Source: Chiloscyllium plagiosum (Eukaryota). From it: DNA of 64,000 nt. The stretch's first letter is position 1. Each line of letters starts with the position of its first letter. The notes beneath the pieces were generated by a model, which saw nothing but the letters and a program-made list of their open reading frames with translations, ran no database searches and had not been told where the DNA came from. A program made the translations under genes and the position numbers. Below, in pieces: positions 462 through 51,547 of the stretch. The stretch spans positions 94,717,591 through 94,781,590 of the forward strand of contig NC_057712.1 in assembly GCF_004010195.1 (NCBI RefSeq), read 5' to 3'.

Positions 462-735
462 GACTTGTCCGGACTTGTCCGACCTGCCTAGCTCCTTTTC
501 CACCTATCCACTCCACCCTCTCCTCCCTGACCTATCACCTTCATCCCCTCCCCCACTCACCTATTGTACTCTATGCTACTTTCTCCCCACCCCCACACTC
601 CTCTAGCTTATCGCTCCACGCTTCAGGCTCACTGCCTTTATTCCTGATGAAGGGCTTTTGCCCGAAACATCGATTTTGCAGCTCGTCGGATGCTGCCTGA
701 ACTGCTGTGCTCTTCCAGCACCACTCATCCAGAAT
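462..735 (+). mobile_element. Penelope-like element 3' end / pseudo-LTR
   Basis: C-rich tract followed by attcctgatgaagggcttttgcccgaaacatcgatt...ggatgctgcctgaactgctgtgctcttccagcacc, the same module seen repeatedly in this window. Confidence 0.85.
640..675 (+). ncRNA. Minimal hammerhead ribozyme motif (degenerate, AUC triplet)
   Basis: AUUC-CUGAUGA(644-650)-A-GGGC UUUU GCCC-GAAAC-AUC-GAUU. G16.2>A is consistent with CpG decay. Confidence 0.7.
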
Positions 736-839
736 CTGCTGAACCCTTCCCCACTTCTACTATGTCCAAAATTTTCCGTGCAACAGAATCCACACTCCCA
801 CTATTTAGTTTAAATATTTGGACAAAGATTCCACTCATC

Positions 840-1145
840 CAGCTACTGTGGTATGATCTGGATTGCTGTTATTATTTCATTGTTCTTATAGTGTTTGAGT
901 GAAAAGTAAGTAGCCATAGTCATTGCTTCTCTAATTACTTTCCAATCTGTAAATGATTTCTTGTGTTTTTCCAGAAGATGGCAAACTCAGAATGATGTTT
1001 CAATGCAAGTCTTGGCTTTGGCTGCTTGTTTAGAAATAAATGACCATTGAGCTTTCTGAACAGCCTTCGGCTCATCAACTTTCTTTGTATGACGGAAAAT
1101 GATCCTCGAATTTCCTGCGCATTGCTGCGTGGTGGTGTTACAAAT
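840..1145 (-). pseudogene. hAT (Charlie/SPIN, GTF2IRD2/ZBED5-like) transposase relic
   Basis: Minus translation KAQWSFISKQAAKAKTCIETSF*VCHLLEKHKKSFTDWKVIREAM...NNEIITAIQIIP matches the hAT-Charlie motif SF.VS.LLAK.KKPFTDGE.IKE. It contains stops and a frameshift. Confidence 0.7.
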
Positions 1146-1769
1146 TCCTGATATACTTTGGTGGCAAAGTCAAAATGCTTTTATCTTTCTCTTCTGAATC
1201 TTCCTCCCAGGTTACATAGACATTTTCATCATTGTTACCTTGAGGTATTTAAGCAATGATCCCAAACTGATCACCAGGTCACATGTTTGTTGAACTAAAC
1301 ACTGATAGCTCATGGTTCAGATGGAATGCTGCTAATAATCTTCCTTTTTATATTGTGTCTAAAGGTATACATAGTTAACAGTAGTAGAGGGTAAACCATG
1401 ACTGAGTGTCAATAAAGAAGGGTTTTGTTTTAACAACAAGATATCCTATATTGCATGATAGCAATGGGCACAAATTATATTGGCTAGTTCAGCATCATTA
1501 CTAAGACTATCAGGACCTGAGGATGATATATCCAACCCCATCATGATATAGAGTTAGACTCCTGGATTCTCCATCCAATGCTTTATGACATAATTGAATT
1601 GGATGAAACTTTATGGAACTTGAGGCAATCTCCAAAATTAACCCTTTCACACCTTTTAAAACAACACCTGAGTAATATTCATGTCAATGGTCAAATAGAT
1701 GCCATTATGTAATTATATTGTTACAGCTTGGTTTGTGTTTCAGCTAGTTGTTGATTAAAAGAACTCAGT

Positions 1770-2240
1770 ACTTTGCCAGGATGTTGCCAGACGGATTGTC
1801 TTTGCTGTTTTCAATGCCTTCAACTGTTTCTTGATATTAGATACAGTGAATCAAATTACAGAAATTCCCTTTACACAGATTTACAGCCTTTTTATTCCCT
1901 TTCAGATTTCTCTACCTTCGCATGTGATTCTGTTATCATAATTCATCTTCATCAACATTTATTAACACTAACCCTATTACTCTACAATTACCACATCCTT
2001 TTTGCCTTACATCCTCGTACTTTTCTCATTTAATCATTTTGTTCTTTTCACCTATTACAGACTTTCCTTTTTGTTCTCTAGCCCCTAATCTAACCTTTCT
2101 CTTCATCTGTACAACCATTTCATTTGGTATACATCTAACTTGATCTTCAGGAATCAGCTTGAAATTTAAGCTGTTTTACTTATTGTCACAGATGCTTCTG
2201 ATCTGTTGAGTATTCCCAGCAATTTTTCTTTTTATTTCAA
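1770..2240 (+). mobile_element. Old, degraded Penelope pLTR fragments
   Basis: acagatgcttctgatctgttgagtattcccagcaatttttctttttatttca (2188-2240) resembles the pLTR tail at 32926-32977 and is preceded by a pyrimidine-rich tract. Confidence 0.5.
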
Positions 2241-2439
2241 TAAACTATTCTTAAGGCTAAAATCAGACTAAGGACTGAAAGTAGACTGTTTAAACCTGTA
2301 GCTGCCTTATTCTGTGATCTATGCCACAAAGCACAAGTTTCTCCAAATTGCTCTCCTGGAGTGGATAAATCTCTGTGTATGAGCTTCTGTGATGACAGAG
2401 TAATGAACCATATTAATACAAAAGATATAAACTTTATAC

Positions 2440-4097: not shown

Positions 4098-4110
4098 CTA
4101 AGATGGCAGC
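4098..4110 (+). promoter_or_regulatory. YY1-like site at L1 5' end
   Basis: ctaagatggcagc right after the 5' G-run, the position where L1 elements carry their YY1 site. Confidence 0.5.
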
Positions 4111-4274
4111 GATCTGAGAAGATCGCACTGCAGAGCTTCACATGTCAGCAGGAGCGTGATGGTCCTTTAACCTGCCCAACCCAGGTCTTCGGGATTTCTT
4201 GGGACTCTGGAAAGATCGTGGAGTCCCAAGAAACATCTAAAAATTAACTTACCTTTATTCTCAGCCGTTCAGAG

Positions 4275-5079
4275 ATGCCAAAAAAAGGAGGAGGAGCATC
4301 CGAGGGAGGGTCAGCCTGCAGCAGCCTCGGAGCTGATTACTCTCCAGGACCTGGTGAACCAGCTCTCGAAGACTCGTGAGATGCTGGGGAAACAGATTGA
4401 AGAGATGCTGGCTCCAGTCTATCTCATGCTGCAGAATCATGAGCAGCAGCTGGGAGACCTGGAGAAGAGGACGGATGAGGGGGAGCACAGGGTCACAGTG
4501 GTAGAAGCTGATGCCAGTTCATCCAAGGATGAGATCCAAGCTCTGAAGACGCAGGTCCATAATTTGCGTGACCAAGTGGATGATCTTGAAAACAGGAACA
4601 GGAGAAAAACATTCGAATCATTGGTCTGCCTGAGGGTAAGGAAGGTGAGCGGCCTGCGGAATATATTGAGGATTGGCTGCCAAAATTCCTTGACTTTGGG
4701 GCTGGCTTGAGAGGATTGAAGATAGCGAGGGCTCACTGGGTTGCAGTGTGGAGACCGGGTCTGGGTCAACGTCCTCGACCTCTTCTGGTACTGTTCCATC
4801 ACTACCGGGATAAGGAGAGTCATGGAGGCTTCCAGAGTCCAGGGGAAGGATCCGAAGGCCCTAATTTATGAGGCCTCTAAGATCATGTTCTTTCAGGGCT
4901 TCTCAGTGGCGGTGATCCAGAAACAAAAAGCTTACGACGGTGTCAAGAGGAGACTGAGGGAGCTTGGGATTCAGTACTCCCTGAGATATCCAGCAGTGCA
5001 TCGGATCACCTTGGATGGATACATACATCTCTTTGACCCATCGGAGAAGGCAAGAGACTTTGTGGACAAACTAACCTAA
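4275..5079 (+). pseudogene. L1 ORF1p (coiled coil, RRM, CTD), frameshifted
   Basis: ATG at 4275; coiled coil ...LRDQVDDLENRNRR; C-terminal LRELGIQYSLRYPA. Confidence 0.9.
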
Positions 5080-5685
5080 TTTGAACAATTGTAGTATGTA
5101 TAAATAGTGATATTGGGTATGTCTTTATCATTCTGTAAAAGAAATGGAGGAAATCCAGTTGGAACTTTATTTTTCTTCTTTTTCCTCTATTGATAATAAT
5201 TTGATTTAAACTATGTCTGGTGGTGGTTAAGATGTACATTTTCAATTTCTAAGTTAGGATATACCAAGGGAGGGGTGGGGTATTTAGTTCCCCTTTTTTT
5301 TATATATAAAATAATTTTTTTTATTCGTATCGATATTCTATGGGGTGTTTATTCTTTTCAGCTTGTGTTTGCAGTGCGGCTCGAGCTGGGAGAAGTGAAG
5401 GTCATTGGGATTTTTAGATGCCTACTTATGGGCAGTTTGAGATGGGTAGTTGCCCCCTCTGGGCAAGGGGTGAGTTCCCTAATGCAGCACTATTGGCGCT
5501 TTATATGTTGGTTTGATTTTTGTTTTTTGTTGTTTTTTTTATTTTTGATAATTTTGTAGGTTTGTTAAATGTAGTTGTTTTAGTTTATGTAGTTTTTATA
5601 TTTGGTGGATCATGTGACGCTAAGGCTCAGCAGTTTGTGGTTTGAGTTCCTCCTCTCTGGAATTTAAATGTAATTGCAGAAGATT

Positions 5686-8600
5686 ATGGACAATGATTTG
5701 ATTAAATGGTGTACCTGGAATATCAAGGGAAGTCACTGACCAATTAAGAGGAAGAAGGTACTTTTGAGTCTTAGAAAGGAGAAGGTGGATATTGCTTTGT
5801 TACAGGAGACACATTTGGATGACAAGGAGCGTCTGAAATTACAGCAGAATGGCTTTGACCGAGTTTATTTTTTGTCATTTAATACCAGAAGTAGAGGAGT
5901 GGCTATATTGGTTAGGAAAAATCTCCCATTTAAATTGTTGGAATGTGTTAAAGACATATCTGGGAGGTTTGTAATTCTTAAAGCCTTAATAAATGGGGAA
6001 GAATACAGTGTTTTAAATGTTTATTGTCCCCCAGCTCATTCTCTTAAATTTTTGATCGAGGCTTTTTCTAAACTGATACGTCTCGAGTCCCGGCTCATCA
6101 TTATAGGGGGAGATTTTAACTGTCTCATGGATCTCACAGTAGACAGGTTGCCCAAAGGTCCTCAATACTCTTTGTATAAACTAAACAGTTAGTGGGTCTG
6201 TGTGGGGAATTAGGGTTGGTGTACGTCTGGAGGCGTCTCCGCCCGACAGGTAGGGATTTCACATTTTTCTCAAATCCGCATAGATGTCGCATGAGCATTG
6301 ATTTTTTTCTGACCCCTACAGTAACCCTGGATTTGGTGGCATCTTGTACGATCGGTAACATTACTCTCTCTGATCATGCTCCAGTGTACCTTATGGTCAA
6401 GACTAAGGACGTTACGGTGGGTTCAAGGTACTGGCGAATGGATCCCTTCCCTCATGGATAGTAAGTTTGTGGAGTATTTCTCTACGGAATTTCGGGCATT
6501 CCTAGGCATTAACATAGGCTCGGTTGATAGCTCATCCATTCTCTGGGAAACTGCCAAAGCCTATGCTAGGAGGTTAGCTATTTCGTATTCCACCAGTAGG
6601 AAGCAGCAGAAGGGTGAGCAACAATGTCTCCTTGAAGCACGGTTGAAGGCAGCCGCGAAGACCTATTTTGACAGACCCTCGTTGGTCAAACTACAGAGGA
6701 TTACAGCACTGCGGTTCTGCACTAAATTCCATGCTCACGCAGATGGCAAAGAAGGAGCTGGCGTTTGCAAAGCAAAGGTTATACGAGCATGGTGACAAGC
6801 CAGGCAAATACTTAGCATACCTTGCCAGAAAGAGGAGTGCCCACAGACCATTACAGCGATTAGGGAGGGGTCTGGGAACCTAACATATGATTCTAAAAAG
6901 ATTAATGTGGCGTTCCAGAGATTTTACTCTAAGTTATACCAATCTAAGGATTGTGAGGAGGAGCAGGCCAAAATGGAATCCTTTTTTAGAGATCTGATGT
7001 TCCCGGGTGTGACTCCCGAACAACAGTCTTTTCTCAATGCCCCATTATCAGAGCAAGAAGTGCAGGAAGCTGTGAGGCAGCTTCAGAGTGGAAAGGCACC
7101 CAGTCCTGATGACCTCCCAGTGAATTCTATAAGGAATTTATAAGTATACTGTCAGGCCTGATGCTGACTATATTTAATGATTCATACAGTCATGTTTGTC
7201 TCCCACCATCTCTGAGAGAGGCCAATATTTCTGTTATCCTTAAAAAAGGGAAGGACCCGGAAGACTGTGCTTCATACAGGCTCATCTCGGTCTTAAATGT
7301 GGACTTTAAGATCCTCTCTAAGGCTCTTGCATTAAGGCTGGAGACTGTGATACCCTCTATTATTAAAGAGGATCAGACAGGCTTCCTAAAGGGTCGCAGA
7401 TCCTCCAATAATGTTAGGAGGCTGCTTAACGTAATTCAAGCAGTTAATACAGGGATTGGTGATTTCTTTAGCTGCAGAGAAGGCATTTGACCATGGTGAG
7501 TGGCCGTACCTTTTCTATACTCTAGAACGGTTTGGTTTGGGTGAAGTCTTCATAAGATGGGTAAAAGTTCTCTACGGTGTACCTCTCACAGCGTTCATTA
7601 CCAACAGGGTACGATCAAGCAATTTTAATATTTTTAGGGACAGCCGGCAGGGCTGTCCCCTTTCACCATTACTTTTTAGGTTGGTGATTAAACCATTGGC
7701 GGAGGCAATTCGTGGGGATCCCACTATATCACCTCCAGAAGTGGGGTCAAAATTACATAAGATCTCGTTGTACGCAGACGATGTCCTAATTTTTTTGACA
7801 AATCCAGCAGTTTCAGTGCCTCACTAATACAATGCATTTACATGTTTGGCACTTTTTCAGGGTATAAGATTAATTTTGCTAAATCAGAGGCTATGCCTAT
7901 GGGTGGTCTTACGAAGGAGCTGGCTCTTGAGGGCGACTATAGATTCCCACTTAGGTGGTCACAGCGGGGTTTTGTGTATTTGGGCATGTTCATCACTCCA
8001 GTTCTGGATTGGCTGTTTAAAAGCCAATTTTATTCAATTATTTGGAAAAATTAAACAAGATCTTCAAAGATGGGAGACATTTCCGGTCTTGTGGTTTCGT
8101 CGGATAGTGCTAATTAAGATGAATATTCTCCCTTGTCTGCTATACCCTATATGGATGCTCCCCCTGATTTTTCAATAAATAAACACTCAGGAAACTGAAT
8201 AGTATTGTAAGCGGCCCTCATTAAATTAACCAAACTGCACAGATTAGGGGGAGTGGACCTTCCAGACATTAAAAATGACCAACTAAGCTCACTTTTTGTC
8301 CTACGTGAGTGACTGGGTTTGTGGTGATCCTCTTTCAATATGATTAGATTTCGAAGCCTCCCAAGCAAGGTGCTCCCTTACCAGTTTGCTGTTTTTGGCT
8401 AATGTGAGGACAGTTAGGGAATATTGCCATAACACAATAGTCATCAATACTGAAAAAGCATGGAGGACAATTCGGCAGAGGGCAGCAATACTGGCAAAAC
8501 ATCTTTGTTTACCCCTTTAGTGATATGCTGGGTTTTCAACCGGATATGATAAATTCAGGATTTAAATGTTGGGCACCTAGTGGTGTGTCTTACCTGGGCG

Positions 8601-9444
8601 ATCTATTTGAGGGAGACGTAATGATGTCCTTCAATCAGTTAGTACAGAAGTACGGTTATCTAATAGAGACCTCTTTCGTTTTTTCAAGTTAGGGATTTTA
8701 TTCAAAAAAAAGATCACACTTTTGACTGATCCCTGCAAATTTAACATAGAGAGGGGCGTGCTAAGGGCTAAGAGTACACTCTCTGTCAGTACTTTATATC
8801 ATCAGTTGGGGGGTGCCACCTCAGATGAGTCTGATTGACTCTGCAAGATGTGGGAAAGAGAGCTGGGTGTTGAAGTTTCCTCAGAAGTATGGGAGGATAT
8901 TTGGGAGAATGCAAGGAAGATATCAGTTTGTAATAGGACCCATGCTTTACTGTTGAAGATTCTCCACAAGGTCCACTTAGCCCCAGACCATTTGTCAAAA
9001 TTTAAACCAGGGGTATCTTCAGCATGTCCCAAGTGCAAGGTCTGCACGGGTACTCTTACCCATTGTCTTTGGTCTTGTGACAGGCTTCAAACATATTGGA
9101 GCGCTGTGGCGGGTGCAATGGAGAGCATTTTGGGTGTAAGGGTGGAGAAGGACCCTATCTCTCTCCTTTTGGGCCTACCCAATGTTTTTCCTACAGACGT
9201 GCATAAGAAAAAACTTTTCAATATTCTCACGTTCTGTGCAAGAAAGAATATCTTGTTCGGTTGGATATCCGAAATCCCTCCGGGCCTGTCGGGTTGGTGG
9301 AAGATTGTTATGGAGCATATTCCCCTGGAGTTTCTCACAAACATGATACACCACGAAACTGACAATTTTTACAAGACATGGCAGCCCTTTTTGGAATACC
9401 TGGAGACAAAGTTATCTGCCACACTAATGAGGGCTTTTATATAG
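5686..9444 (+). pseudogene. L1 ORF2p (endonuclease, reverse transcriptase), multiple frameshifts/stops
   Basis: TWNIKG, LQETH, GGDFN, SDHAP (APE); RQGCPLSPLLF, LYADD (RT); CPKC..GTLTHCLWSC (Cys-rich). Confidence 0.95.
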
Positions 9445-13455: not shown

Positions 13456-13489
13456 TATGGTTTGGTTTAACTTTTGAAAACATAGAAAA

Positions 13490-14800
13490 TAGATTGTTTA
13501 TCCTTTTCCAGGTTTCTTGCTTACTCATCAACAGTAATGCTTGGTCTTGCGTTCTGTTTCAGCAATGGAATTTGTACTTTTAACCTTTGGACCATAAGCA
13601 ACTGTGCTTAAGAATTCATTGCTTAAGGGTGCCACTCTATAATTAGACAAGGTTAAATCCAAATTATTATTCATATGCATTAGCATTGCAATAGTTTTCA
13701 CTGCTCTCTTGGCCCCTCCATTTGCTTGTGGATGAAGAGGAGGAGTAACATGATTCCACAGGATTCTGCAAATTGCCTTGATGCATTTGTTCATGAATTA
13801 TGGATCATTATCTGAAACAATTTCATCTGGATGGTAGTGCATTGAAAATATGTTCTTTAATGTCGTTTTATGTTGTCAGCTGTTGTAATATGTTGTCTGG
13901 TAGCTTCTAGCCATTTTAAATTCTTTGTAACTAATTATTCTTTTCATTTAAAATTCTGTCTGAGTTTGGCTATTAAGTGACAAGAATAGCAGCTTAAGAT
14001 GAAGTCTTTAATTACTTTGGAAATTCCTGACCATAACACAGATCTACAGTTCACGATTACAAAAAACCCACCAGAGATTCTGTGAAGAATTTCCTCCCTC
14101 AATGCCTTTGCAGTTACTCATCTATTGTTAAATACAAAAAGATTGTCTAATATTGTCTGATGTTTTCTCCACTCATAGTACTTTCTTAAGAGTCAACCAT
14201 TTGGATTATACCTTGACCAAACTTCTTGGCAAAATTTCCTAATTAATATCATTCATTTCTTTTGTGCTTTCCTGATCTCTTGTAATTTTTTTTTTCCAGT
14301 CAGAAACTGTTAAGAGTTTTGTCATGACCAGTGAAAATGTTTTCACTTATGAAGTTTTTCCAGCAATTTCTGTTCTTAGATTCTGAATTCCAGCATCTGG
14401 AGTCCTTTCATTTTTTAAATTAAATCTTATCTTTCTGCCCAATCAACTATTGCTCTACATAATATGTCTGCTGTGATATAGTATTGGGTAGTACTTGCAC
14501 AAACTGTGGCAATTCTTGGTGGAATTCAGTTCCATAATCCGAGTGTAGCATTTCATTTTCTACTCCCAGAAGACCCCATTGCAAACATGCATTTCTTTGG
14601 GTAACGACGTTATCTGATTGCCTAAAATGTGGAGGGCGTCATTAATCTGTCACTACTTGTGTCTAAGTGTGTGAGTGATCTGAGTTTTTTACCCAAAGAT
14701 CTATGCCACCTGCTTTTTTTGATGTCTGCTATACTGTTTTCAGCCATTCCAATGGAGCACCTGCTCTGGTGTCAAGTTTGCATTCTGTTTTCAAACCTGC
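13490..14800 (-). mobile_element. Gypsy/Ty3 pol relic (protease and integrase remnants)
   Basis: Integrase LHPQANGGAKRAVKTI (cf. HPQSNGEAERAVRT) in ORF 13528-13794; protease-like CKLDTRAG at ~14760-14785. Confidence 0.7.
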
Positions 14801-17870: not shown

Positions 17871-17874
17871 TCAC

Positions 17875-19105: not shown

Positions 19106-19118
19106 AGAAAATGTATCT

Positions 19119-20174: not shown

Positions 20175-22052
20175 GAGGGAATCTGACTATTATCTGAAAA
20201 GGAACAATTTACTGGAATACAAGGAGAGGGCAGGAGAATGACACTCAGGAAATTGTTCATTCAGAGCTCAGCTGCCTCCTACTGCACCCTGTATCAAATC
20301 TGTGATCCTGAGCAGACAGCCTGATACTTCAAGGACTTTGATGTTGAAGTGCATCATATTCTATAATGTCCGCTATGATGAGTGAATAAATAGAAAGCTG
20401 CCTGTATTAAGCAGTGTTTTCCACAATGTTAAAGTAATTACCAGATGTCCAAACATGGCTCTGCAAGCAAGCTTTATCCATAATCATACTTCTCTGTTCT
20501 ATGAGAACAGAACTTCCACAACTTCCCAATATGCCCTGGGCAGGCAAGTTGTCCTGCCTATGTAATGTACTCAGAAAATGAAGGTACCTAAATGTGTCTT
20601 GGCCACGTGCACAATGATAGCAATACTGAAATGCAGCAGGGGGTTTTCCCAGTCTACCATTTGTAAGTCTGGCAGGAGAAACAACATAAACAGCTGTTGT
20701 AGCTTCAATGTAATTTAAGATTAAAACCTTCTCAGGTGCTTTAAACTACAGTTACTATCCTGCAAGAAAGGAGTACATTTAGCATTCACTTAGCAGATAT
20801 TGTATCTTGCACTCTACCCAATTAGAAGTGCAGAAAGGTTAAGTTCAAGGCATGCTTTTCAAAAAAATGTATGTTCGATGTTCCAGACTTTTGCTGTCTG
20901 ACTCTCTGATGTTTCAACTTCACAGGGATCACACTAATTGACTATTTAATGTTATTATTTAAAATTTCCATTTATCAGGTGCATGTGACAAAGTAGGATG
21001 AAGTTTTAAAAATTCCATTTGCCAAACGTTATACATGATCTTTGTACACAATTTCCATTCATCATGGGATTTACATTTCAGCTATGTTTAGTTTCAGAGC
21101 TTCAGTACCAGCCGACTGATACATAGGCTTTTAATGATACAGGTTAGCGCAGTGTGAAAGGTTCAAATGCCCATGGCAACCTTATTGTTCCCAAATCTTC
21201 TTTGCTCTTTAAAAAGATGTCGCTGCACTGAACATAAATCTCTGCTAACTTTGAGACTTCCTGGAAATAAACCTCTAGCCTTTCAGCCTTGTTGCAGCTT
21301 GGCGATTGTTCAAAAACATTTGGCAAATTAATTTATCCAACACTAGCCAAAAATAACCTTAAACCCAGCGTCTCTGTTGATTTGTTGTTTGATGTGTTCT
21401 GAACTGAAAAGTCCATTACTAAATTATAAACTTTAGAAAAAATAAGGCTTGTTTTTCTTTACTGTTCTCGGTGGTGATAATAAAGTACAGTATCTGCTGT
21501 TTGATGCCAAGTCAAACAGTTTCGTTTGCTTCATTTATTATATCTTATGGAGTATCTGAAAGCTGAGGGGTGGAATATCTCCTGTTCCAACTCTGAATAA
21601 TATATTGTTATCGCGATAAACTTTTGCTTTCTGCAGCACTAATAACGGTATCTATTAATCACAGAACTATGATGGGCACGACACTGTCTGTCTCTGAAAG
21701 AATGCAGTCTCACTTTGAAGTGAGTTATTTCTGATTCAATGTACACCCACCATCATCATTATTTTCACTGCAACTACCAGTGCAGTTTAGAATAACACAA
21801 GTTTATCTAAGGGGTGCTGTGATATTTATAAAACTTGGTTGAGGTTCACAGACTGACTTAGTTAAAGCTATTTTAAGGAAGGCTAGCTGCCTTCATGGTT
21901 CAAATTGGCAAACCTCATGAGTTGAAGGTAGAGTGGGGAAGCTGACACTGACTGTAACTGTGCTGGAAGTGGTATGCAAGCCTGTTTGAAGAACTGGCTC
22001 TCTCTCTTATGTTCTTGCTACTGAAGAAAGCCATAGATTTAGACAACACCCT

Positions 22053-22143
22053 TTTTAGATTAGATTTTAGATTAGATTACTTACAGTGTGGAAACAGGCC
22101 CTTCGGCCCAACAAGTCCACACCGGCCCGCCGAAGCGCAACCC
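22053..22143 (-). mobile_element. 5'-truncated HE1 SINE tail with 40-bp TSD
   Basis: (tagat)n-tacttacagtgtggaaacaggcccttcggcccaacaagtccacacc, flanked by an identical 40-mer at 22013-22052 and 22144-22183. Confidence 0.92.
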
Positions 22144-22829
22144 TCTTGCTACTGAAGAAAGCCATAGATTTAGACAACACCCTGTGGAACAGGCAACTAT
22201 ATATAATGCAGCCTTCCTAATACAATATTCATCAATAGTTGCCCTTATGAATTTTTACACCAAAGCCCGATTTCAGGTGGATAGTAATTGTCCTGCAATC
22301 CAGCTTATAAAGAGTGTGTTTTTTTTAAAATAGATAAATTTTTCTGTAAATTGAAATTAAATTATTTTGCTGAACTGTCTTCACAGACCCAGTTTCTCAC
22401 TTTTGCATTCCGAGAGTGGAGTCTTGCCTGCTATGAGTAAACATTCTGTTCTTTTACCCTGATGTACTTATAGAAGGTATGATTTGTCTGGTTAGCGTGC
22501 TTTTCACTGTATCTCATTTCATTTGACAATAATAAATCTGAAAATCACATGAGATAAGATCCCTTCTGCACCCTTCATAAATTGACCTGATACAGTAAAA
22601 TATCAATGTAGTTACTAAATTTACACAGTGTAAGATTTATTCCTGGGGTCTAACCAGAAACCTCCTTTTACTGATATAGTTAATTAGGATACAAATGCAA
22701 TTTATGGTTGCACTAGATTATTGTAATTAAATAAGCTTACTGTCACATCTTAAGTAGGTTAAAACCAGCAGTGGAGTGAAGGTGATATACAGAGAGTGGG
22801 TGGGATAGGCTGACTACTGGAGTGTCACA

Positions 22830-28609: not shown

Positions 28610-28690
28610 GTCAAGAGTATGCAGCTGGAAAAGCACAGCAGGTCAGGCAGCATCTGAGGAGCAGGAGAATCAATGTTTCAGGCAAAAGCA
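28610..28690 (-). mobile_element. Penelope pLTR fragment (ends within hammerhead stem II)
   Basis: gctggaaaagcacagcaggtcaggcagcatctgaggagcaggagaatcaatgtttcaggcaaaagc. Confidence 0.8.
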
Positions 28691-29111: not shown

Positions 29112-29207
29112 ATTCCTGAAGAAGGACTTAATGCCCGAAACATCGATTTTCCTGCTCCTCGGATGCTGACTGATCTGCTGCGCTTTTCCAGCACCACACT
29201 TTTCAAC
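29112..29207 (+). mobile_element. Penelope pLTR fragment with degenerate hammerhead motif
   Basis: attcctgaagaaggacttaatgcccgaaacatcgattttcctgctcctcggatgctg... Confidence 0.85.
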
Positions 29208-29439: not shown

Positions 29440-29766
29440 ATGGAAACAGGTCCTTCAGCCCAACAAGTCCACACCTTTCCTCTGAAGAGTAACCCACCCA
29501 GACCCATTTCCCTACACTATTATCCTATATTTACACCTGACTAATGCACCTAACCTACACATCCCTGAACACTACGGGCAATTTAGCATTGCAATTCACC
29601 TAATCTGCACATCTTTGGATTATGGGAAAAAAACTGGAGCACCCAGAGGAAACCCATGCAGACATGAGGAGAATGTGGAAGCTCCACACAGACAGTTGCC
29701 TGAGGCTGGAATCGAACCCGGGTCCCTGGCGCTGTGAGGCAGCTGTGCTAAGCATTGAGTCACCAT
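29440..29766 (-). mobile_element. HE1-type tRNA-derived SINE
   Basis: Reverse complement: ggtgactcaatgcttagcacagctgcctcacagcgccagggacccgggttcgattcc..., the conserved central domain, then gtggacttgttgggctgaagg. Confidence 0.92.
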
Positions 29767-29824
29767 GCATTGTCATTGATAATGACAATGATCAAAACGT
29801 TAGAGTTGATTTGGAGAAACTGTA

Positions 29825-31685: not shown

Positions 31686-32777
31686 AAAAGCCCTTGATCT
31701 GATTGGGATATAAATAGGTAGGAATTGCTATCAGAGGCCAACAAGGCTGGCCCTCTCTAGTCAATTGTGGCAGAATGAATGATCTGTCATTCATTTTATA
31801 TCTGGCAATATATCTTTATTTTTGAATGACTCCAACAGTTGTTTGTGAAATCTTAATGCCAATAATATTTGCTTTTCCCAGATCGCATCATTGCTAAGGC
31901 ACAACTGAGGGGTGTTATTTATATCTTATTATAACCTACCTGTCCATTTCTTGGGAAAATGCATTGCACATAACAACACCACTTCTGACTGGAAATTTTA
32001 GAGGTGGGATTAAGAGCTGAACCTAATGGAAGGAATCATCCTGTGAGTTACTGACAATTACACCTCCCCTCACCCTCACCTACCCACTGCCTTAGGCAGG
32101 TTCCAACAACAAAACTGAAAAGAAATTTTGACCCTATGGCATAAATGATCTTTCTTTTTTTTGTAGGTAATGCATAGATTGAGCATGGCGCAAATTACAG
32201 AGAAAATTGCGGGTATTTAAATGTTTTTGTTTCATTAATAACTGAAAAAGCAATCATTAGACTAATTACAAATATTAGTTAGAGTCTGGCTTGTCAAAGT
32301 GATCCCAGTTTTCATTGGGGATCCAGTTTCTGGATGTCTCCCGAGATGTTTCGCTGATTGCTTGTAATGAGTGACAAATCTCTCTCGTCCGTTCCAGTTC
32401 TTCATCACCTTCAGCTCAGGCTCTGTCCACTTTATTAACTATTTCATTCCTGAATTCTGTTACACATCCTCTTTTAGGAGATAGCAGAGCCTAAACGTCA
32501 CACCTGTCCATTGCCGACATGGCAGCTCCCTCATTATTAGGCCATTGAGGAACTTCTGTTATCCTGTGGCAGCCAGGTACCAGAAGTAAGGGTAAGGTTC
32601 TTTGTTTAATTATGATATTGGTGGGCAAGTGTGTAACCTTGCTGTCAGACTACTGTTCTCACCTCAGGTTGCTATCCTCTGTTTCACTTTGCCCACACTG
32701 ATTTTGTGCTTTTCGACTTGCCTCACTATCTGTCATATTTTTACATTAGCATGGTTTCTTTTCTTAAAAATAACCCC

Positions 32778-32978
32778 AAAGGACTGCAGATGCTGGAAAT
32801 CAGAAACAGAAACAAAACAGAAATTTCTGGAAAAACTCAGCAGGTCTGGCAGCATCTGTGGAGAGAAGGCAAAATTAATGTTTCGGGTCCAGTGACCTTT
32901 CTTCAGTTAATTCTGATTTCTCTCCACAGATGTTGGCAGACCTGTTGAGTTTTTACAGCAATTTCTGTTTTTGTTTCT
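32778..32978. mobile_element. Second Penelope family pLTR, inverted pair, with hammerhead variant
   Basis: Minus arm 32778-32906 contains CUGAAGA-A-AGGUC ACUG GACCC-GAAAC; plus arm 32907-32978 is its inverted copy. Confidence 0.8.
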
Positions 32979-34015
32979 TTTCATTAATTCTCCTTTAATG
33001 CCTGCAACTTATTTTAGGATGCCTGTCATATCAGCTCCCATTAACATAACTCCAAACATTTAACTGCATACTGTGCGTAGAGTAACAGATACTCAAAGAT
33101 ATAAATCAATCTAGTCACAACCCTAGGCCTGTCAAACCTTATCCACCCACCCTAACATCACAACAGAGAATTTGACCTTTAGGATAGAAAATTCATTCAT
33201 TATTCATTTGTTCTCTGCCAGAAAGCAGACCTTTGGCTCATTGTTTGCTGATATATCAACTGGAATGGTTTCTGTGCAATTTTTGTCAAATTGTTTGTTT
33301 GTTTTGCCATTAGTTTAATGTAAAGATATGTCACTGTTTATTCCGGCTTATGTGTATAATTGTTTGACCCTGAAAGGGTTCATGCTGAGGGATACATTAA
33401 GCACTGCCCACTATGAAGACATCAAATGGACTCTGGTGGATGAATAGCTCTCAATCTTGAAGGAGATCTGCCGACCAATGAAGTTTCCCTCAGAGTCCTG
33501 AGCTATTGTGTATCATAGCAATATAACTTGTATCTGATGGCAATCATGCAATAGACAGCAACTTGTTTAAAGACAAATGCCTCTTCTCGTTAACCGGCCA
33601 GTGGTTTACTTGACCATATTAGACCAAACAGGTCTATAAATCCCATAGAGGATGTCAGCAGCAAATATACTCCACGATGATAAATAGTCCAGGTAGCCGT
33701 AATAATGCAGTGTCAGTGGTGAGCATCACTTTATCTTACAACACAGTAAGCAACAGTGTGTATTCAGACACAGCTTTATGAGAGCTCCTTGTGCAGTCAG
33801 TCAACAGCCAAAAGAACTGAATGTTCCAGAACTCTGCAGAAGAGCAACTCATGACAAGATTCAACAAAACAGAAACTACCATCACAAGAAACAGCATTTC
33901 TGACCTGAAAAGAGAAGTGCAGAAACAATTGTGAGCTCAGAGCTACGTGGAATTGGAACACAAGTCACACCTGGCATTTCCATATTGTATGTGCTGCTAG
34001 TGACTGTAGGAATGG

Positions 34016-34239
34016 TGAAAGTGAGGACTACAGGTGCTGGAGATTAGAATCGAGAGTGCGGTGCTGGAACAGCACAGTAGGTCAGACAGCATCTGAGGAG
34101 CAGGAGAATTGACGTTTCGGGCAAAAGCCTTTCATCAGTAATGAGCTCATTCCTGATGAAGGGCTTTTGCCCAAAACGTCGATTCTCCTGCTCCTCAGAT
34201 GCTGCCTGACCTGCTGTGCTTTCTCAGCACCCCACTCTC
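34016..34239. mobile_element. Palindromic Penelope pLTR insertion with two hammerhead motifs and 14-bp TSD
   Basis: Arms are centred on atgagctcat (34141-34150). TSD gactgtaggaatgg at 34002-34015 and 34240-34253. Confidence 0.92.
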
Positions 34240-34699
34240 GACTGTAGGAATGGATCCTGTGTTAAGGTTTAGCCAAACAACAAATGGACATCAAAGGCTA
34301 CATGTGCGAAGTTGTAATATCTGATGGGCAAGAGGAAAACATTCAAAAATATGGTGCAGTTACAGGCAAAGAAGCCAAACATAAGCAAAGGACTTATAAC
34401 TCTGAAGGGGTTAATGCTGAGGAGTACATTAAGCACTGCTCAATATGACAAAGCCATATCACCTTGGGTGGGAGAACACTTCTAGATCTTAAAGTAGATT
34501 TAACTACCTTCTAGGTCAGTTTCAGAGGCTTTGTAAAATTGGACAGAATCTTACCAGGCTCTGAGTGCCATGGTAGAATGATGTGTAGCAAGAACACTTT
34601 GCGTTCAGGGGAAAAGCACCAGTTCATGAACTGATCCAGGCTGTATCTCACAGTTCTTCATTTCTCTGACAGTGTTCACTCAATCTGAACCAACCTGGA

Positions 34700-35680: not shown

Positions 35681-35698
35681 GACACATGGTAAGATGGG

Positions 35699-35824
35699 CT
35701 GAAGAAGGGCTGAGGCCCGAAATGTCGATTCTCCTGCTCCTTGGATGCTGCCTGACCTGCTGCGCTTTTCCAGCAACACATTTTCAGCTCTGATCTCCAG
35801 CATCTGCAGTCCTCACTTTTTCCT
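35699..35824 (+). mobile_element. 126-bp Penelope pLTR insertion starting exactly at the hammerhead core, 15-bp TSD
   Basis: ctgaagaagggctgaggcccgaaatgtcgatt...ctcactttttcct. TSD acatggtaagatggg at 35684-35698 and 35825-35839. Confidence 0.93.
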
Positions 35825-38566
35825 ACATGGTAAGATGGGACAGGTAATCCAATGTGATATTCATTGGAAGTACTGAATCACCATTAATGTCTTGAGTTTG
35901 ATAAAATATTTCAAGAAACATTCATTGGCCTTGTGGAAATAAGCAGTCCAACAAACTCAACATCACTTATACTTCAGAAAAAACCCAAAAGATTCAGCTC
36001 ATAGTCTATCATGAAATAAACCACATCTTGTTTAAGAGACAAGCATTTTCTCCTTGCATTATCTATTGGTTTTCCTCTACCACACTGGACCAAATTGACC
36101 CCTACAGATTTCAACCTAAAAGGAGGATGATGGCAGCACCTCAATGTAAGACCATAGGACTATAAGACATAGGAGTGGAAGTAAGGCCATTTGGCCCATC
36201 GAGTCCAATCCGCCATTTAATCATGGTGGATGGGCATTTCAAGTCCACTTAGCTGCACTCTCCCTGTACCTCTTAATTCCTTGTGAGATCAAGAATTTAT
36301 GAATTTCTGCCTTGAAGACATTAAACATGCTGCCCTCCAATCCACTCCGTGGCAATGAATTCCACAGACCCATCACTCTCTGGTTGAAGAAATGTGTCCT
36401 CATTTCCATTCTAAATTGATCCCCTCTAATTCTAAGGCTGTGCATCCCCGCCTAACAGAAACAAATTCCCAGCGTCCACCCTTCCCAAGCCATGCATTAT
36501 CTTGTAAGCTTCTATTAGATCTCCCCTCAAACGTCTAAACTCTGATAAATACAATCCCAGGATCCTCAGCTGTTTATTGTATGTTAGGCCTACCGTTCCA
36601 GGGATCATCCTTGTGAATCTCCGCTGGACATGCTCCAGTGCCAGTATGCCCTTCCTGAGGTGTGGGACCCAAAATTGGACATAGTATTCTAAATGGGGCC
36701 TAACTAGAGCTTTATAAAGTCTCAGAAGCACATCGCTGCTTTTATATTCCAACCCTGTTGAGATAAATTACAACATTACATTCGCTTTCTTAATCATGGA
36801 CTCAACCTGTTAGTCAACCTTTAGAGAATCCTGGACTAGCACTCCCAGATCCCTTTGTACTTTGGCTTTATGAATTTTCTCACTGTTTAGAAAGTAGTCT
36901 GTGCCTGTATTCTTTTTTCCAAAGTGCAATACCTTACATTTGCTCACATTTAAATTCATCAGCCATTTTCCGGACCACTCTCCTAACCTGTCTAAATCTT
37001 TCTGCAGCCTCCCCACCTCCTCAGTACTACCAGGCTGTCCACCTAACTTCATATCATCGGCAAACTTCACCAGAATGCCCCCAGTCCCTCAATCCAGATC
37101 ATTAATATATAAAGTGAATAACTGTGGCCCAATACTGAACCCTGAGGGACACCACTTGTCACCGGCTACCATTGCGAAAAAGAATCTTTTATTCCAACTC
37201 TCTGCCTTCTGTCAGTCAATCCGCAATCCATGCCAGTAGCTCACCTCAAACACCGTGGGCCCTCACCTTACTCAGCAGCCTCCTGTGAGGCACCTTATCA
37301 AAGGCCTTTTGGAAGTCTAGATAGATAGCATCCACTGGGTTTCCCTGGTCCAACCTACTTGTTACCTCTTCAAAAAATTCTAACAGGTTTGTCAGGCACA
37401 ACTTCCCCTTACTAAGCCCAAACTGATTTGTTCTAATCTGACCCTGCACTTCCAAGAATTTAGAAATCTCATCCTTAACGATGGATTCTAGAATTTTGCC
37501 AACAACCGAGATTAAGCTAATGATCCTATAATTTTCAATCTTTTGTCTTGATCCTTTCTTGAACAAGATGGTTACAACCGCAATTTTCCAATCGTCTGGG
37601 CCTTTCCCTGACTCCAGTGACTATTGAAAGATCACAATCAATGCCTCCGCTATTTCCTCAGCCACCTCCCTCAGAACTCTAGGATGTAGCCTGTCGGGGC
37701 TAGGAGGTTTATCTATTTTTAGATATTTTAGCTTTTCTAGCACTTTCTCTTTTGTAATGGCTACCATACCCAACTCTGCCCCCTGACTCTCCTTAATTGT
37801 TGGAATATTACTCATGTCTTCCACTTTAAAGACTGACGCAAAATATCTTCAGCTATTTCCTTATCTCCCATCACTAGCCTTCCAGCTTCAGTTTGGAGCA
37901 GCCAAATGTCTACTTTTTCCTCTCATTTGTTTCTTTTGTATTGGAAGAAACTTTTACTATCATTTCTAATATAACTGGCTAGCCTACCTTCATATTTGAT
38001 CCTCTTCTACCTTAATTCTCTCTTTGCTATCGTCTGTTTGTTTTTGTAGTCTTCCCAATCATCTGATTTCCCAGTGCTCTTGGAACCTCTGTACTGTGTC
38101 CTTAATTACACCCAGAAACTCCTGCCATTGTTGCTCTACTGTCTTCCCACTAGGCTCTGCTTCTAGTCGATTTTCATCAGTTCCTCTCTCATACTTCTCT
38201 AATTACCTTTATTTAACTGTAACACCATTACATCCAATTTTGCTTTCTCTCTTTCAAACTGCAGATTGAACTCTACTATATTATGATCGCTGCCTCCTAA
38301 GTGTTTCCTTACTTTAAGATATTTTATAAAGTCTGGCTCATTACATAGCACTAAGTCCAATGTGCCGTTGTTCCAAAAAGCCATCCTGTAAGCATTCCAT
38401 GAATTGCCTTACTTTGGATCCACCAGCAACATTATTCACCCAGTCCATTTGCATATTGAAGCCACCCATGATCACCGTGAAATTGTCTTTCTGACATGCC
38501 CTATCTATTTCCCGGTATATCTTGCGCCCCTGGTCCTGACCACTGTTAGGAGGTCTGTACATAACT

Positions 38567-38828
38567 GGAAATGTGTTGCTGGAAAAGCGCAGCAGGTCAG
38601 GCAGCATCCAGGGAACAGGAGAATCGACGTTTCGGGCATAAGCCCTTCTTCAGGAATGAGGAAAGTTTGTTCAGCAGGCTAAGATAAAAGGTAGGGAGGA
38701 GGGACTTGGGGGAGGGGCGTCGGAAATGTGATAGGTGGAAAGAGGTCAAGGTGAGGGTGATAGGTCAGACTGGGGTGGGGGCGGAGAGGTCGGGAAGAAG
38801 ATTGCAGGTTAGGAAGGCGGTGCTGAAT
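38567..38828 (-). mobile_element. Penelope 3' end nested in CR1, 13-bp TSD
   Basis: TSD tctgtacataact at 38554-38566 and 38829-38841 splits the CR1 endonuclease VMYRPP motif. Confidence 0.93.
38622..38657 (-). ncRNA. Minimal type-I hammerhead ribozyme motif, intact core
   Basis: AUUC-CUGAAGA-A-GGGC UUAU GCCC-GAAAC-GUC/GAUU. All conserved core nucleotides are present, with a palindromic ACGU helix III. Confidence 0.8.
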
Positions 38829-39971
38829 TCTGTACATAACTCCCATTATAGTTTTTTTGCTCTGTGGTTCCTCAACTCCACCCATGCAGACTCCACATCA
38901 TCTGACCCTATATCATTTAGTGCCATAGATTTAATTTCATTCTTAACTAACAAGGCAGCCCTGCCCTCTGCCCATCTCCCTGTCTCTTCAATAAGTTGTA
39001 AATCCTTGGATGTTTAACTGCCAGTCCTGACCCTCCTGCAACCATGTCTCTGTGATGCCTACCACATCATAATCATTCACGAAGATTTGTGCCATTAATT
39101 CATCTACTTTGTTGCAAATACTACGAGCATTCGGGTAAAGTGCCCTAATGCTAACTTTCTTACCATTTTTAGAGGTCTTCGAAATCATATGATGTCCGAA
39201 GTTACCCTTCTTTTATGCTGCATTCCTACTTTCTTCAAGCTTAAAGCCACCTGCCCACATGCTATCCTGCTGCTTATCTTTCCATTTAACTCCATACTCC
39301 CTGTCACTTTCCCTTTTCCTTCTCCCCGACTCAGAAGTTTAAAATCCTACTGACCACCCTATTTATCCTTTTTGCTAGAACACCGGTTCCATATCGGTTC
39401 AGGTGGAGACCACCCCAATGGTACAGACCCTCCCGGTTCCAAAACTGATACCAATGCCCCATAAAATTGAAACACTCTTTCCCCACACCAATCCCTTAGC
39501 CCCATGTTTACTTCCCTAACTTTCTTATCCCTATGCCAATTGACACGTGGCTCAGTCAGTAATCCGTAGATTATGATCCTTGAGGATTTCCTTCCTAGTG
39601 CTTGATAATCCCCAAATAGGTCCTCAACCCTAGCTTTGCCTATGTTGTTAGTCCCAACATGGACCACAACAACTGGATCCTCCCCCTCCCGCTCCAATAT
39701 CCTTTCCAACTAGTCGGAGGTGTCCTGCACCCTGGCACCAGGCAGGTAACATACCATGCGGGACTTCCTATCTATCTTACATAGGATACTATTTGTCCCC
39801 CTAATTACAGAATCATAATTATAACCATAATGTTATGGTGATCAATTGACCAGATGGCTCTGACAACATGAGGAGCAATGTTGAGGATTTATCATAGAAC
39901 AACTTACAGATGTGCTCCCTCCGCTGAGTTTTAGATCTGTCTGATACAAAACCTTGGCAGATCATCATCTG

Positions 39972-40170
39972 CAATAAAAGCGAATTACTGTTGATGCTGG
40001 AAATGTGAAATTTAAACAGAAATTATTTGAAACATACTGGCCTTATGGCATCTGTGGAGAAGCAAAATTCTGAAGGAAATTCATATTCAGTTTGAAAAGT
40101 TAATTCTGTTTTTCTCTTTCTGCTGATGGTGTCAGATCTGATGAATATTTCCAGCATTTTTATTTTTTGT
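39972..40170. mobile_element. Old inverted Penelope pLTR pair
   Basis: gatgctggaaatgtgaaatttaaacaga...ggcatctgtggaga / ctgaagga...gaaaagttaattctg...gatctgatgaatatttccagcattttt. Confidence 0.6.
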
Positions 40171-40199
40171 CATGTGTAATACTATCCAGTTCCCTCCTG

Positions 40200-49499: not shown

Positions 49500-49636
49500 T
49501 GAGATGTTTAGGGTTGTGCAGAATCTCAGGTATCTTGAAGAAATTCTGTAGGGTGGCCTCTTACTTCACCATTGACTAGTGGTCTACCTACACTATCGCA
49601 CACCATATTGCAGTCCCACACTGGGGAGGCAGAGGC
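49500..49636 (-). pseudogene. Retropepsin protease remnant
   Basis: ASASPVWDCNMVCDSVGRPLVNGEVRGHPTEFLQDT* (RP.V..G...FL.DTG pattern; DT* at 49534-49526). Confidence 0.7.
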
Positions 49637-50970
49637 CTAACACCTTGTGGATGTCTCATAGGCTGGGAGTTGTGGGGGGGTTACATGGGTTGGCTAGTGT
49701 CCATGGCTTAGACTGAAGCTTGCCGAGTTGGGCCTTCTAATGGGAATTGGTGATTTCATCTATCACGCTTTGGCCCTCCTGTGGTCGGTGGGACCTGTGG
49801 CTGTGAGTATGGCCGTACATGGGCTCGACATTCCCATGCATTGTGTCCTCTGTGCCCACAGTTGTAGCACTACACTGCCAAATGTTCCCCCTATCTCTGC
49901 TTGTGGCTGTGTAAGGTGGAGCCAGGTTCATTGGGTAAGAGGTCTCCCCTTGTCCTTCATTCCTCCACACCGGACCCTGGTTGTACGTTCAGAATAGAAA
50001 GGAAGCATTTTCCCTCCTTTCTCTGCCTTGCCTTTATTAAATTCATGGGCTTTTCTCGCCCATACCCAGGACATTCTTCTCAGAATCCATGCCTCATTGT
50101 GGCTTGGCTCTGCGAGATTGAAGTTCACACATGCCTTCCTGCTCTCCTTGGCAGCATGGGAAACTAAAGTCCTAGCCCACGTACCTGAGTCAGCCTTGGA
50201 TAACTCACCCTGCTTAAGTCTCCATAGATTCCTGTAAAGTGCACCCATAAGCTACTGGCAAAGGCAGTCGCGTGCTCCCCCTTCTTTTGTTTGCACTTGT
50301 TCAACCTGGCTATGGGGTTTTTTATAGCCAATTGTAGTCAGAATTACCGTTTTCATATTGGCTAGGGTTCTGTCGCCTACATTTACCGGGGCTGGGATTG
50401 CCGACTGTACTGACTGGCTGAAACACATTACAATGGGTTTCACGCCCTCTCTCATCCAGCTCATGTAAGACATTCAGCTGCCTGACACTGTCTAAAAACA
50501 TAAACAGATCAGCTGATGGGTCAAATTCTGGAATCTTTTTTGCAATCTCTGCTAACTGCGGCACTGTAAATGGGGTGGTGTACGTGATTGCCGGGACTTT
50601 GGTCTCCCGACCTGCCTTTCGGTGATAATTGGGCTCATTGTGACTGGGGTGTTCCCAGGGGCACTGAAGGAGTAGACTCCTCTGGGAAGGGTGAGGTCAG
50701 ACCCCAATCCTCAGTGCACACAGCGTACTGCTGCGCGTCTTCCCTGAGCTCATCCCAGTCTATCCCTTGTTCTTCTCCTTCCTCGCTAATCTCCCTATAT
50801 GCACATATTATTCCTTTTTGAATTGAGAGCTGCACTTTTAATTTGTCAATCTCCTGCAGGCACTTGGTATGGTCTGCAGTTGCCTGTCTCTTTTCTCTGT
50901 CTGCCCAGTGCAGTACCCTGACTGCTGCCCGCAAATCTGCACATTTAGTTTTAAATTGACTTACTTCCTT

Positions 50971-51192
50971 CTCAGGCGAAAGTGAGGACTGCAGATCCTG
51001 AAGGTTAGAGTCGAGAGTGTGGTGCTGGAAAAGCACAGCAGGTCAGGTAGCATCCGAGGAGCAGGAAAATCGATGTTTCGGACAAAAGCCCTTCATTAGG
51101 GTTACCTGATGAAGGGCTTTTGCTCGAAACGTCAATTTTCCTGCTCCTCGGATGCTACCTGACCTGCTGTGCTTTTCCAGCACCACACTCTC
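50971..51192. mobile_element. Palindromic Penelope pLTR insertion with two hammerhead motifs, 13-bp TSD
   Basis: Arms are centred at ~51102. TSD gacttacttcctt at 50958-50970 and 51193-51205. Confidence 0.92.
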
Positions 51193-51402
51193 GACTTACT
51201 TCCTTTCCAGCAGCCTCTTTCACTAACACTGTGTGCTGAGTATCTTGATATGCTGGGATTGGTATTGCCCCATGTGGAGCAGGTTTGCCTGATTACTCTG
51301 GTCCTGAGCAGTGTTTTTCAACTATTCCTCTGTGATTACCCTTTTCGCGTCCTCCAGTTCCTTATGGACAGTTTTTATTTCCTGCTCTGATCCCAGTAAC
51401 TG

Positions 51403-51547
51403 AAGATGGCAGAGTGGAGGGCCTGAAGAAGGGCCTGTGCCCGAAACGTCGAATCTCCTGTTCCCTGGATGCTGCCTGACCTGCTGTGCTGTTCCAGCAA
51501 TAAAGTTTCAACTTTGATCTCCAGCATCTGCAGACCTCACTTTCTCC
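51403..51547 (+). mobile_element. Penelope pLTR insertion with intact hammerhead core, 12-bp TSD
   Basis: CUGAAGA(51423)-A-GGGC CUGU GCCC-GAAAC-GUC-GAAU. TSD tcccagtaactg at 51391-51402 and 51548-51559. Confidence 0.92.

Follow-up and report, generated by a model that had tools for sequence, protein, structure and literature searches.

A stretch of 64,000 nucleotides from the genome of the shark Chiloscyllium plagiosum (contig NC_057712.1, positions 94,717,591 to 94,781,590; hereafter the window, in whose own numbering all coordinates are given) contains a dispersed repeat carrying hammerhead ribozyme-like motifs. Based on the architecture of these motifs and the anatomy of the insertions that bear them, we consider it very likely that they are minimal type-I hammerheads in the pseudo-long terminal repeat (pLTR) of endonuclease-bearing Penelope-like elements (PLEs), and that the copies in the window are decayed, dead-on-arrival insertions. 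A scan for the pattern CUGANGA-stem II-GAAA combined with direct reading recovered cores at 644(+), 29116(+), 32906(-), 34138(-), 34153(+), 35699(+), 38653(-), 51099(-), 51106(+) and 51423(+), as well as a core-less partial copy ending at 28689(-), in agreement with all ten core coordinates and the partial copy near 28690 listed in the original prediction. With up to three mismatches allowed, the motif pattern matched the window eight times and matched none of 100 dinucleotide shuffles. A repeat of 85-125 nt lies 3' of the motif and is common to all copies, and a profile of the whole repeat, built with 10 of the 11 listed copies as seeds, retrieved all 11 at E <= 3.5e-21. Beyond them it recovered four extra old pieces (E 2e-7 to 1.4e-3) and a weak partner arm at 39988-40068 (E 0.19). 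The earlier listing, right in its coordinates, had missed the core-less arms at 32907-32972(+) and about 39975-40069(-), the degenerate core at 40070(+) and the remnants at 14354(+) and 2187(+), and had left a G12A change in 34153 unflagged; the core that it reported as mutated, 51099(-), carries G5A. Loose motif matches at 25611, 37024 and 63134 were discarded as chance occurrences lacking the downstream repeat, such matches numbering 1.65 on average, and at most six, in shuffled sequences. As two inverted pairs bear two cores each, the ten cores represent only eight insertion events, seven of which lie between 29 and 52 kb.

At the left edge of the window, protein homology identifies the 5'-truncated N-terminal part of a Penelope-like open reading frame (ORF; 1..452, minus strand), which runs off the edge and has a frame break near position 94. 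It is joined head-to-head, without a gap, to an inverted pLTR at 450..735(+), in which a C-rich upstream part (450-639), extending the copy by about 194 nt, precedes the hammerhead (640-675, with C3 at 644 and a predicted cut at 671/672) and a short 3' end. At this inverted junction the ORF contains about 2.8 successive copies of a 33-bp piece (370-453), as if the reverse transcriptase (RT) had restarted repeatedly. Further along are a partial copy at 28613..28689(-), which begins inside stem II, lacks the CUGANGA box and has no clear target-site duplication (TSD), and a solo short copy with intact boxes at 29112..29204(+), for which no TSD was found. Three other solo copies are bounded by TSDs. 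The first, at 35699..35824(+), starts at C3, has a tail and is flanked by a 15-bp TSD (35684-35698 / 35825-35839); the second, a tail-less copy of 261 bp at 38568..38828(-), sits inside an old long interspersed element (LINE) on the same strand with a 13-bp TSD (38554-38566 / 38829-38841) and contains the only intact minimal hammerhead by the strict descriptor (38622..38657, minus strand, with C3 at 38653 and cleavage predicted between 38626 and 38625); the third, at 51403..51547(+), has a tail and a 12-bp TSD (51391-51402 / 51548-51559). Between the TSD and the core of this last copy lie 19 purine-rich nucleotides (51403-51421, plus strand), the start of which resembles an aborted first copy of the core joined through a 3-nt microhomology.

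Four insertions are head-to-head pairs, with junctions near 32907, 34146, 40068 and 51102. The pair at 32766..32972, with a 10-bp TSD (32754-32763 / 32973-32982), belongs to an older family and combines a minus arm that has both core (GGUC/GACC) and tail (32766-32906) with a plus arm that has neither and starts 2 nt before the predicted cut site (32907-32972). The pair at 34016..34239 has a palindromic junction near 34146 and a 14-bp TSD (34002-34015 / 34240-34253), core 34138(-) lying on its tail arm and core 34153(+) on its tail-less arm; that at 50971..51192 has a 4-nt junction filler and a 13-bp TSD (50958-50970 / 51193-51205), with core 51099(-) on the tail arm and 51106(+) on the tail-less one. 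An old and diverged older-family pair occupies 39975..40170 and retains no TSD; its arms share 4 nt at the junction, the plus arm having a degenerate core at 40070 and no tail, and the minus arm a tail and no core, with its start at the predicted cut site. Two older-family remnants complete the inventory, namely a tail-only 3' piece at 14354..14409(+) (profile E 1.5e-5) and a weaker piece at 2187..2223(+) (E 0.0014).

Exact direct repeats of 10-15 bp were found at six of the nine insertions tested, while among 300 random site pairs examined as a control 10 bp was reached once and 12 bp never; ATT at the target, looked for by eye as a possible preference, was seen in one of the six TSDs. The copies end some 90 nt or some 125 nt 3' of the core, two classes that differ by the tail. 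In all four pairs the tail is present on one arm only, with overhangs of 36, 42 and 48 nt in the three that were folded (junction ambiguity included). Along with the inverted junctions and the adjoining PLE ORF fragment, these TSDs and one-sided tails uphold the Penelope origin and minimal type-I architecture first proposed from the sequence. The arms of the pairs, which we infer to have been identical at birth, now agree at 83/88 (51102), 84/94 (34146) and 54/68 positions. All five differences between the arms of the 51013-51192 pair are in the ribozyme part and none in the approximately 58 nt beyond, a bias that is absent from the 34146 pair. The pairs fold into long hairpins (about 90 bp; -87 to -179 kcal/mol for three of them) and yield sub-threshold matches to Rfam microRNA models, features that might be expected if they were miniature inverted-repeat transposable elements or microRNA-like hairpins whose likeness to a hammerhead is incidental. 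We find this explanation scarcely credible, given that the arms are unequal, the junctions differ, TSD length varies, solo arms have TSDs of their own, every microRNA match remains below the gathering score, and the motif fits the 11 conserved core positions, the 9.1 bulge and the G-C pair of the published hammerhead consensus.

The short copies have additional features downstream of the ribozyme. Tail-bearing copies, and no others, can form a 7-bp stem that pairs a stretch near +46 with the tail; it is perfect in three of five, in both families (35699-35824(+), 51422-51547(+) and 32766-32907(-)), and shows no covariation. Inside it lie a 5-bp hairpin and, at the short 3' end, an AC-rich stretch. 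The arrangement recalls the stem-loop at which the RT of the Anolis PLE starts. The best-conserved part of the repeat spans C3+53 to C3+75 (e.g. 35752-35773, plus strand), and comprises CTGAC, a run of pyrimidines and a CAG that is invariant in 11 of 11 copies. It resembles a 3' splice acceptor with CTGAC as a branch-point-like element and would lie about 47 nt beyond the site of cleavage; in that case the hammerhead would fall within an intron of the 5' untranslated region.

Comparison of the copies one by one shows how far the ribozyme architecture is retained. The bulged A after A9 is present in all ten core-bearing copies, and the CUGANGA and GAAA boxes are both intact in eight, since 34153 carries G12A and 51099 carries G5A. 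The G10.1-C11.1 pair is likewise found in eight, with A-C in its place in 34138 and 32906. Stem II has 4-5 bp and is mainly GGGC/GCCC, with GGUC/GACC in the older family (32906), where the single copy has one extra U-A pair; the copy alignment thus bears out what had been noted about position 7 (U/A), the loop II variants, the main form of stem II and the second family. The outer helices had been described in more regular terms than the copies justify. The palindrome ACGU of helix III is indeed the majority form, but is intact in only five of ten, with ACAU in four and AUGU in one, all of these being ACGU changed by one CpG transition. Helix I, given as AUUC/GA(A/U)U, forms three of its four pairs in 644, 29116, 34153 and 38653 and is lost or truncated elsewhere; its predicted probability is at most 0.07, no copy has the perfect 4-bp helix, and AUUC and GAAU never occur together in one copy. 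At the level of individual lesions, 644 has ACAU in place of ACGU; 29116 has ACAU and an A-C mismatch in stem II; 32906 has A10.1 and ACAU and is devoid of helix I; 34138 has A10.1 and A1.1; 35699 has AUGU and, because it starts exactly at C3, no 5' strand of helix I; 51106 has A1.1 and a truncated helix I; and 51423, with boxes, stem II and ACGU intact, lacks the 5' strand of helix I. The only whole core is 38653, in which no difference from the window consensus lies beyond position 7 and loop II. The strict descriptor is passed by this copy alone of the ten (shuffle mean 0.00, n=20), and by three of ten when helix I is not demanded (shuffle mean 0.10, n=20). A covariance model derived from nine copies recovered those nine training copies and 32906 (E 3e-4), with nothing more below E 1.

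The identity of the parent element is suggested by the ORF fragment. The frame at 1..452(-) is 84% identical to a protein of Chiloscyllium punctatum and 67% identical to one of Hemiscyllium ocellatum, which by itself would suggest a host close to the bamboo and epaulette sharks; among 13 matches in a representative library it matches the stingray protein P0009 (E 1e-6). P0009 and P0007 combine an N-terminal part matching the fragment with a later stretch common to them and the Chiloscyllium proteins P0015 and P0016; the C-terminal part of P0009 compares with Chiloscyllium RVT_1 proteins at 58-62%, and both P0015 and P0016 contain RVT_1 above the Pfam cut-off. The latter two are in turn 44-46% identical, over about 560-600 aligned residues, to the Acropora protein P0017, which has an RT, a CxxxxCxxC linker and a GIY-YIG endonuclease domain with CxxC (two cysteines between its motifs). 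P0015 and P0016 end before the linker, and the cysteines between RT and endonuclease were found in P0017 only. The endonuclease cysteines mark PLEs and the linker cysteines mark Neptune and Nematis (PMC8557442), while Neptune and Poseidon are both present in vertebrates (preprint 10.64898/2026.07.22.740005). In light of the two sets of cysteines in P0017 and this vertebrate distribution we regard the element as Neptune-like; the parent is probably of Neptune type with at least two families, the clade being read from the coral relative. Neither the ORF fragment nor its N-terminal relatives matched a Pfam family, and nothing useful on P0009 came from the ESM Atlas. By tblastn, the N-terminal parts of the related proteins had no match to the short copies; two pattern scans of GTDB genomes for stray copies returned none, and tblastn of P0015 against phages found nothing; P0013 was rejected as a spurious repeat match. 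Pfam scans of the window, covering 183 of its 341 stop-free stretches of at least 55 aa and 15 chosen ones, found only retroelement domains above cut-off.

Several observations weigh against the assignment of these motifs to endonuclease-bearing PLEs. The GIY-YIG domain of P0017 scores 20.7 bits, just below the Pfam cut-off of 22.6. In the window, tblastn with RT- and endonuclease-bearing proteins detected no RT or endonuclease remnant and no full-length element is present, so that the link to an RT is a three-step homology chain; among 59 candidates there was no full-length relative of at least 796 aa. Between the C-rich upstream parts of 644 and 38653 there is no significant similarity, as 73 of 1000 shuffles reach the same score, and three of the nine insertions tested have no TSD. 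Rfam returned no match in the window at gathering score and 14 at E up to 5, with no hammerhead family among them, and accordingly the hammerhead identification rests on the published descriptor. Finally, no covariation was seen among the window copies: compensatory double changes occurred in none of seven pairs among nine closely related copies, too small a sample to weigh much, and in none of the 13 pairs obtained with RNAalifold.

We then considered whether the repeat has been shaped by selection. Over all differences among the nine main-family copies, partial and older-family copies being left out, 2 of 99 core cells differ against 31 of 387 tail cells (Fisher p=0.04), the copies being related and selected by the presence of a core; the most variable ribozyme parts are position 7 (4/9) and loop II (7/36). 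The earlier statement that variation follows the ribozyme structure, and the excess core conservation by which it could be checked, therefore hold at subfamily level with this reservation. They fail for single copies, where private substitutions affect 2 of 99 core cells and 11 of 387 tail cells, meaning that the two do not differ. The structural columns contain 13 differences, 12 of them G>A or C>T and eight at CpG, and folding z-scores for five segments range from -0.78 to +0.81. We read the copies as having decayed like neutral DNA since their insertion. The conservation of the core over all differences is what selection on the parent elements would leave, but it is seen in copies that are related and were picked by their core.

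The most complete copy, 38653, bears on whether any of the motifs might still be competent. Its stem II is predicted to form (P above 0.9), while helix I has a predicted probability of 0.07 alone and 0.004 in context; the energy calculated for a double hammerhead is -9.3 kcal/mol, compared with -21.9 for a competing dimer that pairs across the cut site, by nearest-neighbour energies that ignore tertiary contacts. At 38620-38628(-) a second palindrome spans the cleavage site, with a stronger predicted intermolecular duplex than ACGU; in such models it could hold the motif inactive until a protein binds. The nearest neighbour of 38653 on its strand is more than 4.5 kb away. Neighbouring cores on one strand are separated by 317 bp to 28 kb and have TSDs of their own wherever these were found, and the closest two, 51106 and 51423 (317 bp), both lack a proper helix I. 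Transcripts through the close opposite-strand pairs would fold into hairpins of -161 to -179 kcal/mol with a stem II probability of 0. PLE hammerheads reportedly cleave as dimers (Lunse et al., as given in a review, PMC6765202). Single minimal hammerheads gave no cleavage in vitro and dimers cleaved weakly (PMC4209133); the Anolis motif required the protein of its element (PMC11167929), and one of nine Xenopus retrozyme dimers cleaved (preprint 10.64898/2026.07.22.740005). Activity of the window copies in cells is unlikely; weak activity in vitro may be retained. The suggestion that some copies are still competent, with 38622-38657 as the best candidate, comes down to this one copy, the sole one to pass the strict descriptor, and is made weak by its poor helix I and the lack of a same-strand neighbour within 4.5 kb.

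The intact 38622-38657, with its predicted stem II (P above 0.9), and the slightly greater conservation of core than tail over all differences (p=0.04) could also be taken to mean that certain copies have been retained as working ribozymes with host transcripts as their targets. This we hold to be very improbable. One intact copy in nine is the neutral expectation at 2-3% private divergence, the helix I and dimer predictions for 38653 are those just given, this copy lies within a degraded LINE in a window whose Pfam scans show only retroelement domains above cut-off, and single minimal hammerheads were inert in vitro (PMC4209133).

The 5' ends of the copies are far from evenly spread. Counting one arm per insertion, 7 of 11 fall within an 8-nt interval, -7 to 0 as counted from C3 (scan-corrected p 1e-4 under a uniform null over 100 nt; reached in 0 of 20000 draws under a geometric null), the positions having been set by eye and the 2187 remnant left out. 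Among the seven ends fixed by a TSD or a junction, five lie inside this interval (32906, 34146, 35699, 40070 and 51102) and two outside (644 and 38653); 29116, 28690 and 14354 have no TSD-fixed end, and 51423 is preceded by the 19 unassigned nucleotides. We found no prior report of such clustering in the literature searched. No main-family arm (0/10) starts at the cleavage site. The two core-less arms of the older family start at it (40069) or 2 nt before it (32907) and could record cleavage; these two diverged cases decide nothing, because the complementarity of helix I provides microhomology at the same spot. Three of the four copies that retain upstream bases have an A at -4, the first base of helix I, in a motif that resembles an initiator (background 1.3% per position, in copies that are related and have a pyrimidine-rich flank).

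Run-off from an RNA whose 5' end lies at helix I is the reading that this clustering suggests and that we prefer. Arrest of the RT at a protein-bound ribozyme, a short non-autonomous master and junctions chosen by microhomology are its rivals. PLEs have internal promoters in the pLTR (PMC2377424), and in D. virilis the intron ends at 491 and C3 lies at 496, assuming one numbering (PMC2377424, PMC4209133), which offers a precedent for an RNA boundary at helix I. As a tentative proposal, more doubtful than not, the short copies would be run-off, "strong-stop-like" complementary DNA (cDNA) made from uncleaved RNA that starts at the A at -4 and primed internally 90-125 nt away, so that the genome would hold a very large fossil record of insertions, from which one could read both the transcript start and whether the template had been cut; it would not have been in the main family and may have been in the older one.

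Under the main explanation, that of PLE insertions, the motif of the parent element would work as other PLE minimal hammerheads do in the literature: because it has no helix III of its own, two copies would have to pair through ACGU, probably aided by the element's protein, before cutting after GUC. The endonuclease made staggered nicks, which the TSDs place 10-15 bp apart. Priming by the RT would have taken place at either of two internal sites located some 90 or 125 nt past the core; the equation of the two 3'-end classes with RT start sites follows the Anolis data (PMC11167929). As the absence of main-family arms starting at the cut site indicates, the RT copied uncleaved RNA through the ribozyme, and it mostly stopped just past it; cDNA from both nicks, or a fold-back, may give the observed head-to-head pair with its one-sided tail. 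An uncleaved template for the shark copies agrees with the Anolis PLE, which inserts in vitro from uncleaved RNA with no need of cleavage (PMC11167929).

A more developed form of the short-master alternative is that of a self-propagating non-autonomous family, either a non-LTR retrozyme or akin to short interspersed elements (SINEs), in which PLE proteins would re-insert a short RNA once the ribozyme has cut it and it has become circular. The insertions are for the most part 90-145 nt long with their 5' ends piled up at one place, as such a master RNA would give, and both pLTR-related monomers and, in one chondrichthyan, tandem retrozymes have been described (preprint 10.64898/2026.07.22.740005). 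A cleaved monomer should nevertheless start at the cut site, where none of the ten main-family arms does; the ends vary, two copies reaching 176-194 nt upstream and one adjoining an ORF; the motif occurs in none of the nine tandem arrays found in the window; and the retrozymes described bear tandem canonical hammerheads (PMC7229834). We consequently think this origin improbable.

The window holds other repeats. A near full-length but broken LINE at 4171-9441(+), encoding a coiled-coil ORF1, an AP endonuclease and an RT, is presumably L1-like. Further broken LINEs with RT and endonuclease pieces are located at 36242-39709(-), which we assume to be CR1-like and which is interrupted by the 38653 insertion, at 56934-58463(-) and at 27183-27608(+). 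A second dispersed family of about 300 bp, presumably SINE-like, is found at 22013-22183, 24693-24892, 29441-29768, 51908-52198, 54846-55198 and 62323-62632. Broken reading frames at 50325-51042(-), without a Pfam match and in our view gag-like, have the 51102 pair inserted at their upstream end. Two segments of about 137 bp are each duplicated locally in direct orientation, at 15569-15705/16109-16245 (98%) and 23333-23470/24984-25121 (93%).

What PLE hammerheads do is described as unclear (PMC8557442). If the run-off reading is true, their role in vivo becomes testable from assemblies alone, the sharp 5' ends of TSD-bounded shark copies allowing the start of the RNA, and any copying of cleaved RNA, to be tested on a genome scale. 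Furthermore, if the density of one to three descriptor-passing motifs per 64 kb holds, sharks would be among the richest vertebrate sources of such motifs and useful for covariation work; the very large genome-wide number put forward in the original prediction is likewise extrapolated from this one window. Thousands of solo copies per genome are recorded in coelacanth and Xenopus, and the 56 motifs from 40 species in the alignment of that survey include none from a chondrichthyan (PMC4209133). Our literature search, conducted without most subscription journals and repeat databases, found no description of these shark families.

In comparison with the minimal hammerheads of PLEs, defined by CUGANGA, an unpaired base 9.1, G10.1-C11.1, GAAA, a palindrome at 15.2-16.2 that lacks loop 3 and is followed by UH, and a short helix I (PMC4209133), the shark majority form has the first four of these and the palindrome, along with a similar U-rich upstream flank, and its copies are likewise mostly solo with some close opposite-strand pairs. 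It differs in a stem II at the short end of the range and, in the main family, a U-U mismatch in helix I; the closest entry in the supplementary alignment is the Neptune of Acropora digitifera, with the same GGGC start of stem II and CGUC (PMC4209133). The insertion marks of PLEs, namely inverted 5'-truncated pLTRs, palindromic junctions, a one-sided tail of 30-40 bp and short variable TSDs (PMC8557442, PMC3846280), liken the shark copies to endonuclease-bearing PLEs, probably those of the Neptune clade, with which they have in common 5' truncation, inverted pLTRs, the one-sided tail, variable TSDs and a pLTR hammerhead; unlike these, most shark insertions are reduced to ribozyme and tail, with 5' ends at the ribozyme edge. 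In the Anolis Poseidon element PAc, two internal sites at which the RT can start delimit the tail, and nicking and extension take place on both strands of the DNA (PMC11167929). Two RT start sites, double-strand nicking, uncleaved RNA and a protein-assisted hammerhead would make the shark elements alike, whereas PAc belongs to a different clade and its ORF starts in stem II, the shark-related N-termini having no match to the short copies. Non-LTR retrozymes resemble the shark repeat in their type-I hammerhead, relation to pLTRs and dispersed monomers (PMC7229834, preprint 10.64898/2026.07.22.740005); head-to-tail arrays, mostly canonical ribozymes and circular RNAs are theirs, and the window has no array bearing the motif. 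By the sequence features that can be tested, then, the shark motifs are neither canonical Rfam hammerheads nor tandem retrozymes and belong to the minimal hammerheads of PLEs, a class already known (PMC4209133).

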